In this document: piece after piece, positions 1,790 through 59,191 of the stretch
Layout: each line of letters opens with the position of its first letter
Position numbering within the stretch: position 1 is the first letter of the stretch
Assembly (NCBI GenBank): GCA_038729465.1
Contig: JAVYRZ010000006.1
Span: 1,697 to 65,696, forward strand
Direction: 5' to 3'
DNA: 64,000 nucleotides
From: Thermoplasmata archaeon
GTDB taxonomy: Archaea; Thermoplasmatota; Thermoplasmata; Thermoplasmatales; ARK-15
The notes under the pieces: model-generated
What the model saw: only the letters and a program-made list of their open reading frames with translations
Database searches by the model: none
What the model was told of the DNA's origin: nothing
Translations under genes and position numbers: made by a program

Positions 1790-1794
1790 AGAAA

Positions 1795-2171
1795 AGTTAG
1801 TATTAGTAATCCTCCGATATTTAGATAGGAAATACGCGGACTGTTTTTGATAGATGCTTATATATAAGAAATAATTAAAACTTCCAAAGCAAAGCTTTAT
1901 CATCACAAAAAAGTATTGAAAAACATTTTGGTGATTGCAGGTTTGTTTGCAACTATTTTTATCAGAACATATCATTGTGAAAACTGTGAATAGGGTTAGA
2001 TAGAGATCTGAACACATCGCTAAACATGGCGAAGATAGAAACGTTAAAAGCAGGTTAGCGCAATCTGAATTTACGTTTGTGGAGATTGCAACATTCTGCT
2101 AGCATGAAATATATCCGTACACTCTTGGGCATAGGGGCAAGGAAACTCCGATACTTTAGCTGAGGAGTAGC
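1795..2171 (+). repeat. Repeat family F1, copy 1 (~377 bp, MITE-like or ncRNA-bearing element)
   Basis: Alignable end to end with 3674-4044. The left ~250 nt are about 90 percent identical by eye; the right ~130 nt are much more diverged. Ends carry TAATCCTC / GAGGAGTA inverted termini and a direct ~20-nt motif CTCCGATAyTTTAG..AGGA at 1812-1830 and 2146-2166. The element abuts the pyrI stop codon. Confidence 0.8.
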
Positions 2172-2639
2172 TCAAATTATGTTTTTTAAGATATCTTGTT
2201 GATCCATTTCTCGTTCACAATATTTGCATTTTATCTTAATTGGTTTTGAGGATATTGTTATAAATTCAGGTTCTATTGGTTCATTTTGATTAGTAACACA
2301 GCTTGGATTGGAGCATTTTACAATACCTTTTAGTGATTTCGGTACCTGAACTCTGTATTTCTCTGTTACTTCATAGTTTTTTATAATGTTTACTGTAGCA
2401 GAAGTAGTAATCAAAGATATTTTATTTATTTCTTTTTCGCCAATGTATCTATCTTCTATCTTTACAATATCCTTAAATTTTTTGGACTTACTGCTTACAT
2501 GCATTAAAATACTAATTGTAGATCCAATATCGTCTTCAATTCCCAATATCTTCAATACTTTCAGCGCGAAACCGCTATCTATATGATCTAGCACTATTCC
2601 GTTTTTTATTTTTTGAACTTTTAATGTTTGTTCATCCAT
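2172..2639 (-). CDS. pyrI: Aspartate carbamoyltransferase regulatory chain
   Basis: N-terminal KIKNGIVLDHI block and a C-terminal Zn domain (CSNPSCVTN...CKYCE). Immediately downstream of pyrB. Confidence 0.9.
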   Translation of the reverse strand: MDEQTLKVQKIKNGIVLDHIDSGFALKVLKILGIEDDIGSTISILMHVSSKSKKFKDIVKIEDRYIGEKEINKISLITTSATVNIIKNYEVTEKYRVQVPKSLKGIVKCSNPSCVTNQNEPIEPEFITISSKPIKIKCKYCEREMDQQDILKNII

Positions 2640-2641
2640 AT

Positions 2642-3559
2642 TTATCTAGCTCCCAGTACCATGCTCAAAAGTGCCATTCTTATAGGCACACCATTAGCCG
2701 CTTGCGTGAAATACTTTGCGTTAGGTAAAGCGTCAACGTCTGTACTTATCTCATTTATGCGAGGCAGTGGATGCATCACTATTACATTTTCCTTTGCTTT
2801 TTCTAACAATTTTCTATCTATTATATAAGATCCTGCAACTTTCTGGTACTCGTTTATGTCCCCAAAACGTTCTTTTTGAATTCTAGTAACATAAATTACA
2901 TCTAGATCTTTTATTACTTCTTCAAGATTGTCAGTAACTATATGGTTAACTCTGTCTGATATCTCTCTAATTATGTAATCCGGCATCTGTAAAAGTTTTG
3001 GCGATATAAAATAAAGGTTGGCACCAAACTCTGCCAATGCATGTGTTAATGAATGGACGGTTCTTCCATATTTCAGATCTCCAACAAATCCAATGTTAAT
3101 GTTGTTTAACCTTCCCTTCTCTTTCTTTATGGTATATAAATCCAGAAGAGTCTGCGTTGGGTGCTGGCCAGCACCATCCCCTGCATTAATGACAGGGTGA
3201 TCTGCAAAATGAGCGGCTAGTTTAGCAGCACCTTCATAAGAATGTCTTATTACTATCACATCTGAATACGCGTCGACCATTCGAATAGTATCTGCAAGTG
3301 TTTCTCCCTTTGCAAAAGAAGTGCTTTTGGGATCTGAGAAAGTTATTACATTTCCTCCAAGCTTGAACATACTAGCTTCAAACGACATTTTAGTTCTGGT
3401 GCTAGGCTCAAAAAAAAGTGTAGCAAGAACCTTGCCCTTCAATATATCTAAACTGTTTCCATTAACATAGGGAACCATTGTGTCAGCAACTCTGAAAATC
3501 TCTTCAATATCATCCTTTTTCAGGTCTTTTATAGAGACTATATCTTTTCCTTTAATCAT
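2642..3559 (-). CDS. pyrB: Aspartate carbamoyltransferase catalytic chain
   Basis: FFEPSTRTKMSFE, HPTQ and HPLPR motifs are all present. Confidence 0.95.
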   Translation of the reverse strand: MIKGKDIVSIKDLKKDDIEEIFRVADTMVPYVNGNSLDILKGKVLATLFFEPSTRTKMSFEASMFKLGGNVITFSDPKSTSFAKGETLADTIRMVDAYSDVIVIRHSYEGAAKLAAHFADHPVINAGDGAGQHPTQTLLDLYTIKKEKGRLNNINIGFVGDLKYGRTVHSLTHALAEFGANLYFISPKLLQMPDYIIREISDRVNHIVTDNLEEVIKDLDVIYVTRIQKERFGDINEYQKVAGSYIIDRKLLEKAKENVIVMHPLPRINEISTDVDALPNAKYFTQAANGVPIRMALLSMVLGAR

Positions 3560-3673
3560 TATTAACAGTTAATAAAATACTTTGATTTAATATTTTGCAA
3601 TTTTTATGAATAAAATTCTGGTTGAAAAAATAAAAGCGCGTAAAACACAGAAATAAGTTAGCAAGTAAAATAA

Positions 3674-4044
3674 AGTTAGCAGTAATCCTCCAGTATTTAG
3701 ATAGGGGATATATGGACTGTTTTCAATAGATGATTATATATAAGAAATGATTAAAACTGTCAAAGCAAAGCTTTATCATCACAAAAAAGTATTAGAAAAA
3801 CCTCTTTTTGTTGCAGATTTGTTTGTAACTATTTTTATTAGAAAATATCATTGTGAAAACTGTGAATAGAATTAGACAGAGATCTGAACACATCGCTAAA
3901 CATGGCGAAGATAGAAATGATAAAAGTAGGAGTGGTGCAATTTGAATTACGCCTGTGACGGTTATCCTGCTAATATGAAATATCTCTGTAAAAGCAGATA
4001 TTCGTGATCCTAAAAAGCTCCGATGCTTTAGTTGAGGATTAGCT
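3674..4044 (+). repeat. Repeat family F1, copy 2 (~371 bp)
   Basis: Direct-orientation homologue of 1795-2171. Together the two copies bracket pyrBI. It lies 53 nt from the rpe stop codon. No ORF of 60 aa or more lies within it. Confidence 0.8.
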
Positions 4045-4097
4045 ATTACAAAAATAATTGTTGCACATATTTATTTAGGCTATAGTAACTTTCTTGT

Positions 4098-38306: not shown

Positions 38307-38596
38307 TTTTCATTGTTTTTACGAAATAAAAAGAAAAGTTTTATTTATAATGTGTTTGGAAAAGCTGTAAAAGTTCGATTCTTTAGCGAGAAGGTACAAG
38401 GGCTTCTAACAATAGAAAAGTTCATATAAATTAAGGTAATAAGAGATTTGCTCAGAGAACTAGTCAGCAAGCAGGAAAGAGAAATTCTGAAATCACACGT
38501 ATGGAGAGTGCAATGCCAGTATTATCTACTACTCTTTGAGCCAGAAACACGATCCTTTGGTGTGAAGATATCTACTATTTAGTTAAGGGTAGAGAA

Positions 38597-38669
38597 GCCG
38601 TGGTAGCTCAGTAGGGAGAGCGCAAGACTGAAGATCTTGAGGCCGCTGGTTCAATCCCGGCCCACGGCA
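38597..38669 (+). tRNA. tRNA-Phe (anticodon GAA), no encoded CCA
   Basis: Folded by hand. Acceptor GCCGTGG/CCACGGC. D-arm GCTC-AGTAGGGA-GAGC. Anticodon stem CAAGA/TCTTG with loop CTGAAGA. T-arm GCTGG-TTCAATC-CCGGC. Confidence 0.9.
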
Positions 38670-54842: not shown

Positions 54843-55037
54843 TTAGACCCATCCAACACGGTCTATTTCTCTTTCTTTTTTTGTTTTTTTCTTGTATTCT
54901 TTATAATGTTCTTTGCATAAGTGTGCTCTTTTTTCTCCTTCTTTCAAATTGAATATTTTCATTGCTTTATCTTTTCCTACTGTTTTGTAAGATTCTTCAT
55001 TGCATCCGGAAACACTACATGTTTTTGTTTCTGCCAT
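54843..55037 (-). CDS. Small basic Zn-finger protein (64 aa)
   Basis: CSVSGC...HLCKEH putative metal ligands and a K/R-rich C-terminus. It is preceded by the F1-related leader. Confidence 0.6.
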   Translation of the reverse strand: MAETKTCSVSGCNEESYKTVGKDKAMKIFNLKEGEKRAHLCKEHYKEYKKKTKKEREIDRVGWV

Positions 55038-55080
55038 AATATTTACCTCAACAAAGTTACATTATGTTGTAATATGTGAA

Positions 55081-55225
55081 CTACCCCTCAGCTAAAGCAT
55101 CGGAGCTTCCTGCTTCAACGACCGCTCTCTGCTAGTACGGATATGTTCCCTACTTGCAGGATGTCGCGATCTCTGCAGGCGTGAATTCGGATTACATTCA
55201 CCCTACTGTGCTGGTTATTTTTATC
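55081..55225 (-). ncRNA. Diverged GC-rich copy of the F1 right-hand module; candidate structured RNA or 5' leader of 54843-55037
   Basis: Its reverse complement aligns with 2040-2171 and 3915-4044. It shares the blocks GATAAAAG, CATATCCGTAC and GCTCCGATGCTTTAGCTGAGG. Two hairpins are conserved in all three copies. TTTATAAA and TTATATAA boxes lie just upstream at 55228-55255. It ends 43 nt before the ATG of the Zn-finger gene. Confidence 0.5.
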
Positions 55226-55721
55226 AGCAATGTTATATAACACGCAGATGTTTATAAACATTTTTATTGATTGCTATGCCGGTAATATAAGTTAGATTTT
55301 TAACAATTATTTCTAAAATGTAGCAAAAATTATCTAAAAAATAAGCAATGAGCATATAAAAGAGCAAAATATTCTCGCACTCAATTTCCGGCATGGTATT
55401 GAGGAAAATCAGTGCATCTTCTTTCTGAAGATCAGAGAATTACTGCTTCTCTCAAATTTCTAACAGCATTTAACTTTTTTATCCTCTTTCTTTGCAAAAA
55501 TTGACCTTGAATTTCTGCAATACCTATTTATCTTTTATAAAAATGAAGATTACTGGGTTCATGTATAAATAAAGTACTAACATCTTTTCCAATCTGTCAA
55601 ATAGGGCTTTTTGCTAAAAATTTAAAAAATACAAAATATAATTTTAACAATTTTTGTAATAAATATTTATATATTTGTTAATAATTATCATAATTATAAT
55701 AATTAGAATAATGTGAAAAGC

Positions 55722-55883
55722 ATGACTAATAAAGAAGTATCTGGAACTTATCACAACTGTCCGGAAGACTTTTTACAGGCAGTGGAGCTAGAAAATATGA
55801 TTCTAGATATCTTTATAAACGGCCCAGAAAGATCTATGTTGGGCAGACAATCAATGATTATTGAACAGAACAATGTTATATAA
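55722..55883 (+). CDS. Small ORF (53 aa, absent from the ORF track) directly upstream of the radical SAM/SPASM gene; candidate precursor peptide or gene remnant
   Basis: Hand translation gives MTNKEVSGTYHNCPEDFLQAVELENMILDIFINGPERSMLGRQSMIIEQNNVI. It stops 13 nt before the ATG at 55897. Coding status is unproven. Confidence 0.3.
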   Translation: MTNKEVSGTYHNCPEDFLQAVELENMILDIFINGPERSMLGRQSMIIEQNNVI

Positions 55884-55896
55884 GAAGGTGACAAAA

Positions 55897-57387
55897 ATGG
55901 TTGAAAAAGTTGATGAAAATGTGGTCTTGCAGGAAGGCGGTAAAATAGATACAACGAAGCTTGTATCACAGTTTCAGAAGATTGTTGACAACAGATTTGC
56001 AAAATTCATTATGAAAAGAATGACCACGCCAAAAAAATTCGAGCATACTCTAGCTGTATTTGCAGGTGTTGAAAAACCTAATTCTGTAGGAGAAAAAATG
56101 GAAGTTAAAACCATAGAGGCAGCCTTGGGAAGAGCGTTAAAGACATTTGGCATAAATGATATGGCAGCGGTGAAAAATGCATTGAATGAACCTTTTGTCA
56201 GGAAGGGTGTTGCGTTAACGCTCAGGTCAGTAGCAAAGTACGGGCTGACGAGGCCACAGGTTTTCGAAGCACCTTTGCTCATAGTCTGGAACATTACTAA
56301 GCAATGTAATTTAAAATGTTTGCACTGCTATGCAAACGCTGGTCCTTACAAACATAAGGATGAATTGTCTTTAGAGGAAAAATTGAATGTGATAGACCAA
56401 CTTGATGAAGCGGGAGTGACGATGATATCATTCTCTGGAGGAGAACCCTTGATCAGCCCAGATTTTTGGAAAGTAGCAGAGTATGCGTCAAAAAAAGGTA
56501 TGTACACAACGATTGCTACAAATGGAACACTGCTGACAAAAGAGAATGTTGAAAGATTGAAAAACATTGGAATAAGATATGTGGAAGTAAGCCTTGATGC
56601 CCCGGAACCAAAGACGCACGATATGTTCAGAGGTGTGGAAGGAGCTTGGCAGAGAACAGTAGACGGTATAAAGAATGTAGTTCAATCAGGGGCATTCGAT
56701 ACTGCTATTGCAACCACGGCCACAAAATACAATATTGGTGAAATTCCTCAGATGATAGACATTGCAATAGAGCTAGGCGTGAAAAAGTTTATAGTGTTTA
56801 ATTTTGTTCCCACAGGCAGAGGAAAGGATATAATTGCCGAGGATTTATCCCCCAAAGAGCGGTCTGATCTGTTGAATTATCTCTATGACAGATGGCAAGA
56901 AAAGAAAATTGACATATTTTCAACGAGTCCAACATATTCGCAAGTAGGTATTGAAAGGGTTCTTGCAGGAACTGGAAAAACGTATTCACCCACTCACTTT
57001 GCATCTGCAGATTATGGTGAAACAGGAGTTGGATTAGCAGAATTTATAGGTGGTTGCGGTGCAGGAAGGCTCTATGCGTCCATAGAAGACAATGGAGATA
57101 TAGGTCCATGCGTATTTCTTCCGATAAAGGTTGGAAACATAAGGGAAAAGAGTTTTAAAGAGATATGGGAAAATTCTAAAGATCTTCAGCAATTAAGAAA
57201 TAGGGATCTTTACGAAGAAAACTGCAAATCATGTGTGTTTAGAAATCCTTGCGGTGGATGTAGAGCAAGGGCATACGGCTACTTTGGCAATTATCTTGCA
57301 CCGGATCCAGGCTGCACTTACAATCAAAAAATGTATGATGGGATAATGAAAGAAGTGTACGTTACTGCTGTTGGAGGAAAGAAATGA
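55897..57387 (+). CDS. Radical SAM enzyme with a C-terminal SPASM-type auxiliary-cluster domain and a ~130-aa N-terminal extension
   Basis: WNITKQCNLKCLHCY is the CxxxCxxC motif, followed by FSGGEPL. The C-terminus reads GGCGAG...GPCVF...CKSCVFRNPCGGCRARAY (SPASM-like). GGTGA lies 7 nt upstream of the ATG at 55897; the track uses a TTG at 55861. Confidence 0.85.
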   Translation: MVEKVDENVVLQEGGKIDTTKLVSQFQKIVDNRFAKFIMKRMTTPKKFEHTLAVFAGVEKPNSVGEKMEVKTIEAALGRALKTFGINDMAAVKNALNEPFVRKGVALTLRSVAKYGLTRPQVFEAPLLIVWNITKQCNLKCLHCYANAGPYKHKDELSLEEKLNVIDQLDEAGVTMISFSGGEPLISPDFWKVAEYASKKGMYTTIATNGTLLTKENVERLKNIGIRYVEVSLDAPEPKTHDMFRGVEGAWQRTVDGIKNVVQSGAFDTAIATTATKYNIGEIPQMIDIAIELGVKKFIVFNFVPTGRGKDIIAEDLSPKERSDLLNYLYDRWQEKKIDIFSTSPTYSQVGIERVLAGTGKTYSPTHFASADYGETGVGLAEFIGGCGAGRLYASIEDNGDIGPCVFLPIKVGNIREKSFKEIWENSKDLQQLRNRDLYEENCKSCVFRNPCGGCRARAYGYFGNYLAPDPGCTYNQKMYDGIMKEVYVTAVGGKK

Positions 57388-58769
57388 AAATACTTTTTGT
57401 TTCACCTCCAACGGATTCTGCAATAAAGAGTGTTATTGGCACTACAGGTCCGCCACTTGGGTTAGCATACCTTGCATCTGTGGCAAGATCAAAGAGTCAT
57501 GATGCAAAAATTGTAGATTCGCTTGTGGAAAACCTTACTTTTGAAGAGCTCAGAAAAATTATGGAACAATATTCCCCAGATGTGATAGCCATTACATCTA
57601 CAACTTCAATGATTCCGGATGCTTATGAAGTGGCAAAGATTGCAAAGGATATTTTCCATGGTACTGTAACAGTGATAGGCGGTCCGCATGTCACTTTTGT
57701 ACCTGAACAGACATTGCAGGAAAGCCCTAACATTGATTATGTGGTTAAGGGTGAAGGGGAAATAGCTTTTTCAGGCATACTTGATATACTTGAAAAAAAG
57801 AAGGATCCTAAAGAGATAAGAGGTATTGCCTACAGGAAGGGAAATGGCATAATGAATAATCCACCGGAGACTCTTATAAGTGATGTAGACTCAATACCAG
57901 AACCTTCATGGGATTTACTGCCAATGGATAAATACGAGATAGACAATACCCAATTTGGAACAATAATGACTTCTAGAGGGTGCCCATATAACTGTATATT
58001 TTGCTCATCGTCATTGCAATTTGGAAAACAGTGGAGAGGGCATTCAGTTGAACGTGTAATTGACGAACTGAAAACTTTAAGATACAAATACAATAAAAAG
58101 GATATTGAGTTTCTTGACGATACGTTCACACTTAATATGAAGAGAGCTATTGAATTAACAGATAGGATTTACAAAGAGGGCATTGATATAAGGTGGTCTG
58201 CATCAGCGAGAGTGAACCTTTTCAATGAGGATATTGCAAAAAACATGAAAAAAGCGGGAGCGCATACAGTATACTTTGGAATTGAATCAGGATCTCAGAA
58301 AATTCTGGATTTCATTGGCAAAGGCATTACACTAGACCTTGCAAAATCGTCTGTAAGAAAGGCAAACAATGCTGAATTATATACGTTAGGATCTTTCATC
58401 ATAGGTTTTCCGGATGATACCGTAAAAGACATAAAAACGACAATTAAGTTCTCGAAGGGCATTGGCGTAACCGTTGCGCAATTCACTATTGCCACACCAT
58501 ATCCAGGCACAAGGCTCTGGGATTATGTCATGGAGAATAAACTTCTACTAAGTATGAACTGGAGAAAATTTACAACATTATCGCCTGTGATGAAACTTCG
58601 GAATTTCACACCGGATCAGATACTCAAATGGCTATCTTGGGCATATCTATCATTTTATGTTCGTCCTCTTTATCTGATGAGGGATATAGCAAAAACGCAT
58701 GGTTTTGTTTTTAAAAGGCTAATACCCTATGCAAAGAAGGCAATGAACCTTGATATTATGGGTGAGTAA
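57384..58769 (+). CDS. B12-binding-domain radical SAM protein (461 aa), paralogue of 36921-38306
   Basis: MKILFVSPP...GPPLGLAYLAS...DVIAITS plus SRGCPYNCIFCSS. About two-thirds aa identity to the paralogue by eye and identical length. ATGA overlap with the SPASM gene. Confidence 0.85.
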   Translation: MKILFVSPPTDSAIKSVIGTTGPPLGLAYLASVARSKSHDAKIVDSLVENLTFEELRKIMEQYSPDVIAITSTTSMIPDAYEVAKIAKDIFHGTVTVIGGPHVTFVPEQTLQESPNIDYVVKGEGEIAFSGILDILEKKKDPKEIRGIAYRKGNGIMNNPPETLISDVDSIPEPSWDLLPMDKYEIDNTQFGTIMTSRGCPYNCIFCSSSLQFGKQWRGHSVERVIDELKTLRYKYNKKDIEFLDDTFTLNMKRAIELTDRIYKEGIDIRWSASARVNLFNEDIAKNMKKAGAHTVYFGIESGSQKILDFIGKGITLDLAKSSVRKANNAELYTLGSFIIGFPDDTVKDIKTTIKFSKGIGVTVAQFTIATPYPGTRLWDYVMENKLLLSMNWRKFTTLSPVMKLRNFTPDQILKWLSWAYLSFYVRPLYLMRDIAKTHGFVFKRLIPYAKKAMNLDIMGE

Positions 58770-58771
58770 CT

Positions 58772-59191
58772 ATGGAAAACAATGGAATTTTTGCTATAAT
58801 GAAAAAATTAATGCAAGAGATGTGCCTAAGTGAGGCACCATGCACGATTTATTCTGTTCTAGCAATCTCAGAGAAGTCCATGAGCATAATGGAAATATCT
58901 GAGAAAACTGGTTATTCTCTACCAATGATCTATTCTTCTATTAGAGAATTGATCGAGAATAACCTTGTGGAGAAAATAAAGAATGGAAAGAACACTGAAT
59001 ATATTGCTAACATTAACTTTATAGAGGTATTCGAAAAACGAAGAAAAAAAATCATGGAAAAATTTATTGAGCCTCTTGCAAACATGGATTTGAAAAATTA
59101 CCCACAGAATGTTAGAATAAGAGAAATAAAAGAATATGCAAATACTCTCTATGAATATTTCATAAAAATAAATAAGCTGAATAATAAGTGA
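58772..59191 (+). CDS. Winged-helix (TrmB/MarR-like) transcriptional regulator
   Basis: The CTIYSVLAISEKSMSIMEISEKTGYSLPMIYSSIRELIENNLVEK pattern is HTH plus wing. It starts 2 nt after the radical SAM gene. Confidence 0.55.
   Translation: MENNGIFAIMKKLMQEMCLSEAPCTIYSVLAISEKSMSIMEISEKTGYSLPMIYSSIRELIENNLVEKIKNGKNTEYIANINFIEVFEKRRKKIMEKFIEPLANMDLKNYPQNVRIREIKEYANTLYEYFIKINKLNNK

Follow-up and report, generated by a model that had tools for sequence, protein, structure and literature searches.

What is the GC-rich, apparently structured segment that lies just upstream of a small zinc-finger gene near 55 kb of the window (the whole 64-kb stretch of DNA analyzed here), and why does a related segment form the right-hand part of two repeats, called F1, elsewhere in it? 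An earlier note on this DNA had proposed that the three segments are related copies of a structured RNA module, either a small RNA or a cis-regulatory leader, that also travels on F1. The relationship among the copies was borne out. When the window was scanned for the 20-mer CTCCGATGCTTTAGCTGAGG with up to 3 mismatches allowed, matches with at most 1 mismatch were found at 2146-2165(+), 4018-4037(+), and 55086-55105(-), against 0 matches in 100 dinucleotide-preserving shuffles. In a MAFFT alignment, the reverse complement of 55060-55270 aligned with 1990-2200 and 3860-4070, the right-hand half being clearly conserved. A covariance model built from non-window homologues only (CM R1) also recognized all of them, with 114.1 bits (E 8e-26) for copy 3 at 55076-55206(-), 64.6 bits for copy 1 at 2049-2175(+), and 46.2 bits for copy 2 at 3926-4047(+).

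The window is AT-rich (GC ~32%), and the third copy was correctly described as the GC-richer one, with a GC content of 0.52 in its conserved segment versus 0.44 and 0.39 in copies 1 and 2, respectively. It had a minimum free energy of -51.7 kcal/mol (z = -3.8 versus shuffles), while copies 1 and 2 did not fold much better than their shuffles (z = -1.7 and -1.1). Copy 3 was 78% identical to the nearest homologue found, copies 1 and 2 were 66% identical to theirs, and copy 3 and copy 1 were 65% identical to each other; copy 3 therefore belongs to a separate lineage and is no F1 derivative.

The identity of the module became apparent from its homologues, referred to here by L numbers. A search of one genome per species with the 20-mer, written with R/Y at two variable positions, found 15 loci; Thermoplasmata MAGs account for 13, often with several per genome. 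A metagenome scan added 22 further loci. Upstream of the homologous modules, and in frame, lies the TnpB C-terminal motif (…CxxC…DRDLNAAINI…). In L010, a 392-aa ORF with the domains HTH_OrfB_IS605, OrfB_IS605, and Cas12f1-like_TNB ended within the module, and 409- to 424-aa ORFs of L028, L037, and L030/L035/L041 traversed the whole module and stopped 6 nt before the point at which the copies diverge (…AGTAGCTCAC). The tails of these read-through ORFs, ...SSDALAE(E/G)*, are encoded by the near-invariant 20-mer. The L037 protein, which is 100% identical to a database protein, carried all three Pfam domains, and its relatives in a protein search, which yielded at least 6,000 TnpB loci, are named "RNA-guided endonuclease InsQ/TnpB family protein" by NCBI in Thermoplasmata, Thermoplasma sp., and Aciduliprofundum. 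At least 10 copies diverged after ...CTCAC, which sets the right-end boundary.

In IS200/IS605 elements, a structured RNA of this layout, overlapping tnpB at its 3′ end and extending as far as the transposon right end, is known as the omega RNA, reRNA, or sotRNA (PMC8612924, PMC10097598, PMC4615843). Because the homologues overlap the 3′ end of intact tnpB genes and stop at the transposon right end, as seen in L010, L028, L037, and L030/L035/L041, we identify the module, by homology, as the omega-RNA scaffold at the right end of Thermoplasmata IS200/IS605-family, tnpB-only insertion sequences. In the intact elements, the scaffold overlaps the last ~40 codons of tnpB, and the 16 to 20 nt of flank that follow the right end would be the guide. 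The idea of a structured RNA carried on F1 was right, but that of a new small RNA or cis-regulatory leader was not, the homologues being located at the 3′ end of intact tnpB genes. Ordinary transposon biology accounts for both the GC-rich module and the F1 repeats, which averts a false claim of a new riboregulator. A C/D-box or H/ACA small RNA, fragments of RNase P or SRP RNA, and an integrase att or tRNA-like duplication had also been considered, and were dropped on account of the TnpB motif DRDLNAAINI upstream of the homologues.

We derived a consensus fold with RNAalifold from a MAFFT alignment of nine non-window homologues. It consists of a 5′ hairpin with covariation at all five pairs, a long-range CCUG/CAGG stem, an inner GAUCG…/…CGGUC stem that runs into a variable apical hairpin, and a 3′ hairpin GCUCC-GAU-GC-UUUA-GC-UGA-GGAGU. 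Compensatory changes were found at 10 of the 25 pairs in the MAFFT alignment. In alignments based on the covariance model, 90.6% of cells were paired across 31 distinct sequences and 89.2% across 23, levels reached by 0 of 500 shuffles; such alignments are biased toward the model structure, and the MAFFT result is the more independent one. Slid controls had 30 to 43% of cells paired. The module thus has a covariation-supported secondary structure, as an omega RNA should, and copy 3 forms 23 of the 25 consensus pairs.

The two hairpins that the earlier note had regarded as conserved in all copies are not those of the family. Only 55.8% of their cells pair across 23 family members, a level that 234 of 500 shuffles reach, and the compensatory changes cited for them fail across the same 23 sequences. 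The GAUCGC of the former second hairpin pairs instead with a distal GCGGUC, and the true 5′ hairpin lies a few bases upstream of the former first one.

Between the CCUG/CAGG and GAUCG/CGGUC stems, 55109-55168(-) and its homologues have an internal loop whose two strands are UGGA and GUUGAAG. Given its analogy to RAGATH-18 (PMC11061315, PMC8191799), this loop would fit a k-turn composed of a C-helix, a 3-nt bulge, and tandem G·A/A·G pairs. On inspection, such a k-turn-like loop is a possible L7Ae site in archaea, and a pseudoknot might form between the 3′-terminal NUCAN and the CUGAG within the 3′ hairpin. In L028, L037, L030/L035/L041, and L012, the most conserved 20-mer is constrained twice, as the code for ...SSDALAE* and as the 3′ hairpin.

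Copy 3 is more than a scaffold. It consists of the following parts, listed in the direction of the forward strand.

55076 to 55206, minus strand: scaffold of copy 3, near intact, ending at the transposon right end (...GGGGTAGTTCAC).

55207 to 55397, minus strand: AT-rich middle, with 24% GC at 55207-55370, two TATA-like boxes, and T5/T6 runs.

55398 to 55469, minus strand: left end (LE), ATGCTGTTAGAAATTTGAGAGAAGCAGTAATTCTC...TTTTCCTCAAT, matched by the nhmmer LE profile and aligning with the F1 left ends.

The module had been placed at 55081-55225. The scaffold itself was confirmed, but it ends at 55076 and starts at about 55206, with 55207-55255 being AT-rich filler, and so the distance from its end to the ATG of the zinc-finger gene is 38 nt rather than 43. 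Both of the TATA-like boxes that had been pointed out in the filler exist; such octamers occur about 3 times per kb in the window, and the boxes carry no weight alone. Copy 3 had also been thought to be a right-hand module only, lacking the left 250 nt. An LE profile built from two intact elements, L028 and L037, had instead its best window match at 55465-55398(-) (E 5.8e-8), followed by 38354-38425, 3678-3726, and 1805-1842. Having its own left end, copy 3 is a complete 394-bp non-autonomous element at 55076-55469, about the size of F1, with a diverged middle.

A tblastn search with five TnpBs found no significant similarity in the middle of copy 3 (55207-55397). Translated in the former TnpB frame, the scaffold gives VG*M*SEFTPAEIATSCK*GTYPY*QRAVVEAGSSDALAEG, a sequence that shares 66% identity with the TnpB tail (aa 369-409) and has four in-frame stops. 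Copy 3 has by these signs lost its coding function and kept its RNA and DNA features.

The F1 repeats have the same layout with more of the gene left, and the window holds one further candidate.

1790 to 2175, plus strand: F1 copy 1, with a left end, an N-terminal TnpB piece at 1900-1965, a C-terminal piece at 1996-2055 (both by tblastn), and a decayed scaffold at 2049-2175.

3670 to 4047, plus strand: F1 copy 2, of the same architecture, with TnpB pieces at 3779-3835 and 3872-3931 (tblastn) and a more decayed scaffold at 3926-4047.

38354 to 38572, plus strand: probable fourth copy, short and strongly decayed, with a left end at 38354-38425 (nhmmer E 2.5e-4) and a scaffold remnant at 38471-38572 (covariance model, 19 bits, E 0.005).

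The two F1 copies are 85% identical. Their left ends were found at 1805-1842 (a weak match, E 0.82, at the expected position) and 3678-3726 (E 0.076). In a tblastn comparison of TnpB with the window, TnpB residues 15-36 and 345-364 were found in both F1 copies, so F1 is an internally deleted tnpB element that holds the left end, the first ~36 codons, the zinc-ribbon/RuvC-III end, and the scaffold, approximately aa 37-335 being gone. No intact tnpB was found by tblastn in the 64-kb window, and no tnpA was seen in it either. The fourth, decayed element is probable; it ends 24 nt before a tRNA-Phe gene (38597-38669). The F1 copies have the same orientation and flank the minus-strand ORFs 2172-2639(-) and 2642-3559(-), which we take to be pyrI and pyrB. 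The left end of copy 1 and the right end of copy 2 could in principle bound a composite mobile unit.

Copy 3 is located at a conserved gene, with the following features around it.

54843 to 55037, minus strand: zinc-finger gene of 64 aa downstream of the insertion, an ORF with a conserved GAGGT ribosome-binding site.

55056 to 55075, minus strand: right flank ATATTACAACATAATGTAAC, the guide predicted by position and also the old promoter-to-start spacer of the zinc-finger gene.

55470 to 55474, minus strand: GTTAA, the TAM-like target motif and left half of a split TATA box.

The zinc-finger protein has 117 homologues across archaea. The two closest loci are L018 (86% aa identity) and L021 (81%), which keep the synteny, with thioesterase and aminotransferase genes downstream and an AIRS gene upstream; L016 and L017, where the protein is identical, are the same strain (99.8 to 100% identity) and thus uninformative. 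CM R1 found no match at the orthologous loci L018 and L021 or at the more distant L022. Being absent from these sites, upstream of the orthologous genes of even the closest relatives, the module is no conserved 5′ leader of the zinc-finger gene. The intergenic regions of L018, L021, and L022 align with the window outside the element only. When the window flanks are joined as ...AAAAAAGTTAA/ATATTACAACATAATGTAAC..., they are colinear with L018 (GTTAAATAGAGG) and L021 (TTTAAATATGTG); the longer join …ATAAAAAAGTTAA/ATATTACAACATAATGTAACTTTGTTGAGGTAAATATTATG is likewise colinear with …ATAAAAAGTTAAATAGAGGCAAGACAATGTAACATTATTGAGGT…ATG in L018 and …TTTAAATATGTGCATATGATGTAAC…GAGGT…ATG in L021. In silico excision of copy 3 restores the TATA box of the relatives (GTTAA/ATAT) and its spacing.

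The colinearity with the uninterrupted sites of L018 and L021 shows that copy 3 was inserted after GTTAA and split the TTAAATA box of the conserved zinc-finger gene. This box, ~27 nt upstream of the conserved GAGGT region, lies where an archaeal TATA box would be expected. Among ten elements of the family, whose left flanks are only loosely alike, the last letters of the flank are TTTAA, GTTAA, or TTTAT, which suggests a TTTAA-like TAM, the exact left boundary being uncertain by 1 to 2 nt. An A/T-rich target motif of this kind may bias such elements toward promoters. The locus provides a clean case of a gene-less derivative of a TnpB element within an archaeal TATA box.

The surroundings of the insertion differ among relatives in other ways as well. 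The gap between the zinc-finger and AIRS genes is 163 to 545 bp in L018 and L021, and in the window three plus-strand ORFs lie between them (55861-59191). The first two correspond to L016 genes with Radical_SAM/SPASM and B12-binding/Radical_SAM domains, and the third encodes 139 aa. These ORFs are a lineage-specific gain or loss beside the insertion site. At 2194-2808 of L018, a superoxide dismutase gene lies between the zinc-finger and thioesterase genes, and the window is without it.

We compared the module with known RNA families and elements. At gathering thresholds, Rfam recognized only two tRNAs in the window, and permissive scans of the F1 region gave only DdR10 and PreQ1 at chance level. 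The comparison of copy 3 with Rfam, which had been proposed earlier, did point weakly to a described family, with RAGATH-18 (RF03064) as the best match in a 451-nt search, but its 25.8 bits (E 0.011) are below the gathering score of 44.9. RAGATH-18 was likewise the best Rfam match of L025 (27.0 bits) and L040 (23.3 bits), at the same position as in copy 3. This family is the core of the IS607 TnpB guide RNA (PMC11061315). The likeness extends to an outer stem CCUGN/NCAGG around a conserved GGAG...UGAA k-turn-like internal loop and to an inner stem. On the other hand, the present elements are tnpB-only, with IS200/IS605-type domains, and their TAM appears TTTAA-like, not AGGAG. The IS607 reRNA is said to lie downstream of its TnpB gene and apart from the coding sequence, whereas the scaffold here overlaps the TnpB frame. 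With the score also short of 44.9 bits, we read the likeness as a distant relationship of kind and not membership. What is documented here is a Thermoplasmata omega-RNA family outside Rfam, with a covariation-supported fold and a k-turn-like core common to it and RAGATH-18.

Like the module, the omega RNAs of IS200/IS605 (IS1341-type) elements lie at the 3′ end of tnpB, overlap the end of the ORF, and stop at the right end. They also have a structured scaffold of ~130 nt with covariation, several copies per genome, and a short A/T-rich motif adjoining the insertion. The present family differs in that it is below the Rfam threshold, that some homologous TnpB ORFs read through the scaffold to 6 nt from the right end, and that the window copies have lost tnpB. 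A further family, HgcC RNA (RF00062), belongs to the GC-rich RNAs of AT-rich archaea that were later linked to IS1341-type ends (PMC4615843). The module resembles it as a GC-rich island in an AT-rich archaeal genome that derives from a transposon right end, but it had no HgcC match in Rfam scans even at E<=10.

The window copies themselves resemble PATEs, gene-less IS200/IS605 derivatives of archaea in which LE and RE are fused and which are transcribed (PMC4615843). PATEs "often encode omega RNAs," and TnpB from other IS elements would be needed to act on them in trans (PMC10055086). As in the PATE/MITE-like elements of Haloquadratum, Halobacterium (VNG_R0052), and Geobacillus (PMC4615843, PMC10055086), LE and RE are kept while the protein gene is deleted, and the elements are short (~230 to 390 bp) and multi-copy, with a right part that still encodes the omega-RNA scaffold. 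Both copy 3 and F1 have the two transposon ends with no functional transposase or TnpB gene between them, and copy 3 is inserted precisely beside its target motif, without a target duplication, where L018 and L021 have an empty site. In contrast to PATEs, F1 retains recognizable N- and C-terminal TnpB codons and copy 3 has 190 bp of AT-rich filler; the host clade is Thermoplasmata. We conclude that the kind is a known one, the TnpB omega-RNA scaffold on PATE/MITE-like derivatives, and that the sequence family is new within it.

These comparisons suggest how the elements may work. The window copies, i.e., the two F1 repeats, the probable short fourth relic, and copy 3, are non-autonomous derivatives of the PATE/MITE type. 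If copy 3 is transcribed, its scaffold together with the flank ATATTACAAC… could form an omega RNA usable in trans by a TnpB encoded elsewhere in the genome, the right flank being inferred to be its guide portion. In the window, a search with a 16-mer of this predicted guide found no second match better than 3 mismatches, which is chance level. Such an omega RNA with TnpB would cleave the empty site, i.e., a TTAA-type TAM followed by ATATTACAAC..., and cleavage of the empty site is the normal mechanism by which TnpB retains its transposon (PMC10055086). With TTAAAT preserved at the left junction of copy 3 and TTCACATA at the right one, the zinc-finger gene may be transcribed by way of the scaffold, from the host TATA box that the element has displaced or from the element's own AT-rich boxes. 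That would make the scaffold a 5′ leader by accident, and the location of the element, between the gene's old TATA box and its start, would allow for such co-transcription as a by-product. The T5 and T6 runs inside copy 3 might terminate such read-through transcripts. We consider it highly probable that this account as a whole, with the omega-RNA scaffold, the gene-less window copies, the insertion of copy 3 in the zinc-finger TATA box, and the possible roles as trans guide and leader, is the right one.

The alternative that survives best is that every copy in the window, even copy 3, is inert transposon debris in decay, with neither an RNA product nor a present function. We think this somewhat unlikely, although the window has no tnpB, degradation is plain in copies 1 and 2 and in the 38.4-kb relic, and copy 3 has an unrecognizable middle besides the four stops in its former coding frame. 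What argues against it is that copy 3, with nearly all of its consensus pairs kept, scores like scaffolds beside intact tnpB genes (L040, 111.7 bits; L010, 104.6 bits); scaffolds adjoining intact tnpB have 105 to 153 bits in CM R1, all of them being in its training set. The retention of both ends with a diverged middle is the pattern expected under selection on the ends or the RNA, and expression of PATE RNAs is known from other archaea (PMC4615843). That the copy 3 scaffold is so well preserved could nevertheless be due to a recent insertion and not to function.

Copy 3 might also have been domesticated as a cis-regulatory 5′ leader. Translation or stability of the zinc-finger gene would then be under the control of the structured RNA, perhaps through a k-turn to which L7Ae or a TnpB-like protein binds. 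Its position between the ancestral TATA box and the start, in sense orientation and close to the ATG, would suit this role, as would the TTAAAT at the left junction, by which transcription from the host promoter could run into copy 3. Preservation of the scaffold far exceeds that of the middle of the element or of the F1 scaffolds, and the UGGA/GUUGAAG loop, by analogy, fits the k-turn rules. We find this improbable, since the gene works without the module in its two closest relatives and one more distant one, many genomes carry this scaffold at unrelated sites, and the T5 and T6 runs upstream of the scaffold resemble archaeal termination signals. We would give similarly little credence to copy 3 being an exapted orphan guide-RNA gene. 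In this reading, selection would have preserved the scaffold during the decay of the other parts, transcription would start at the captured host TATA box, and the RNA would serve either as a trans guide for TnpB or for a nuclease-dead TnpB-like protein from elsewhere in the genome, or as a leader with a k-turn by which expression of the zinc-finger gene is tied to this protein or L7Ae. The feature still worth attention is an orphan scaffold, close to intact, in the promoter of a small conserved gene.

A reading in which F1 had simply taken up a separate, new family of small-RNA genes would agree with the lack of an Rfam family at the gathering score and with a GC-rich segment in an AT-rich genome, but it is very hard to reconcile with a module that in intact homologues is part of the tnpB frame and abuts the right end, that has in every window copy a matching left end at the expected distance, and whose closest Rfam likeness is the core of a TnpB guide RNA.

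The interpretation of the window copies as gene-less derivatives of TnpB elements extends to other genomes. Elements of ~145 to 450 bp that consist of an LE and a scaffold without a gene were seen in L011 (6641-6903), L044 (985-1251), L031 (2474-2736), L032 (11313-11455), and L014 (3267-3712). With many Thermoplasmata MAG contigs carrying such elements, PATE-like derivatives of this TnpB family appear to be common in Thermoplasmata.
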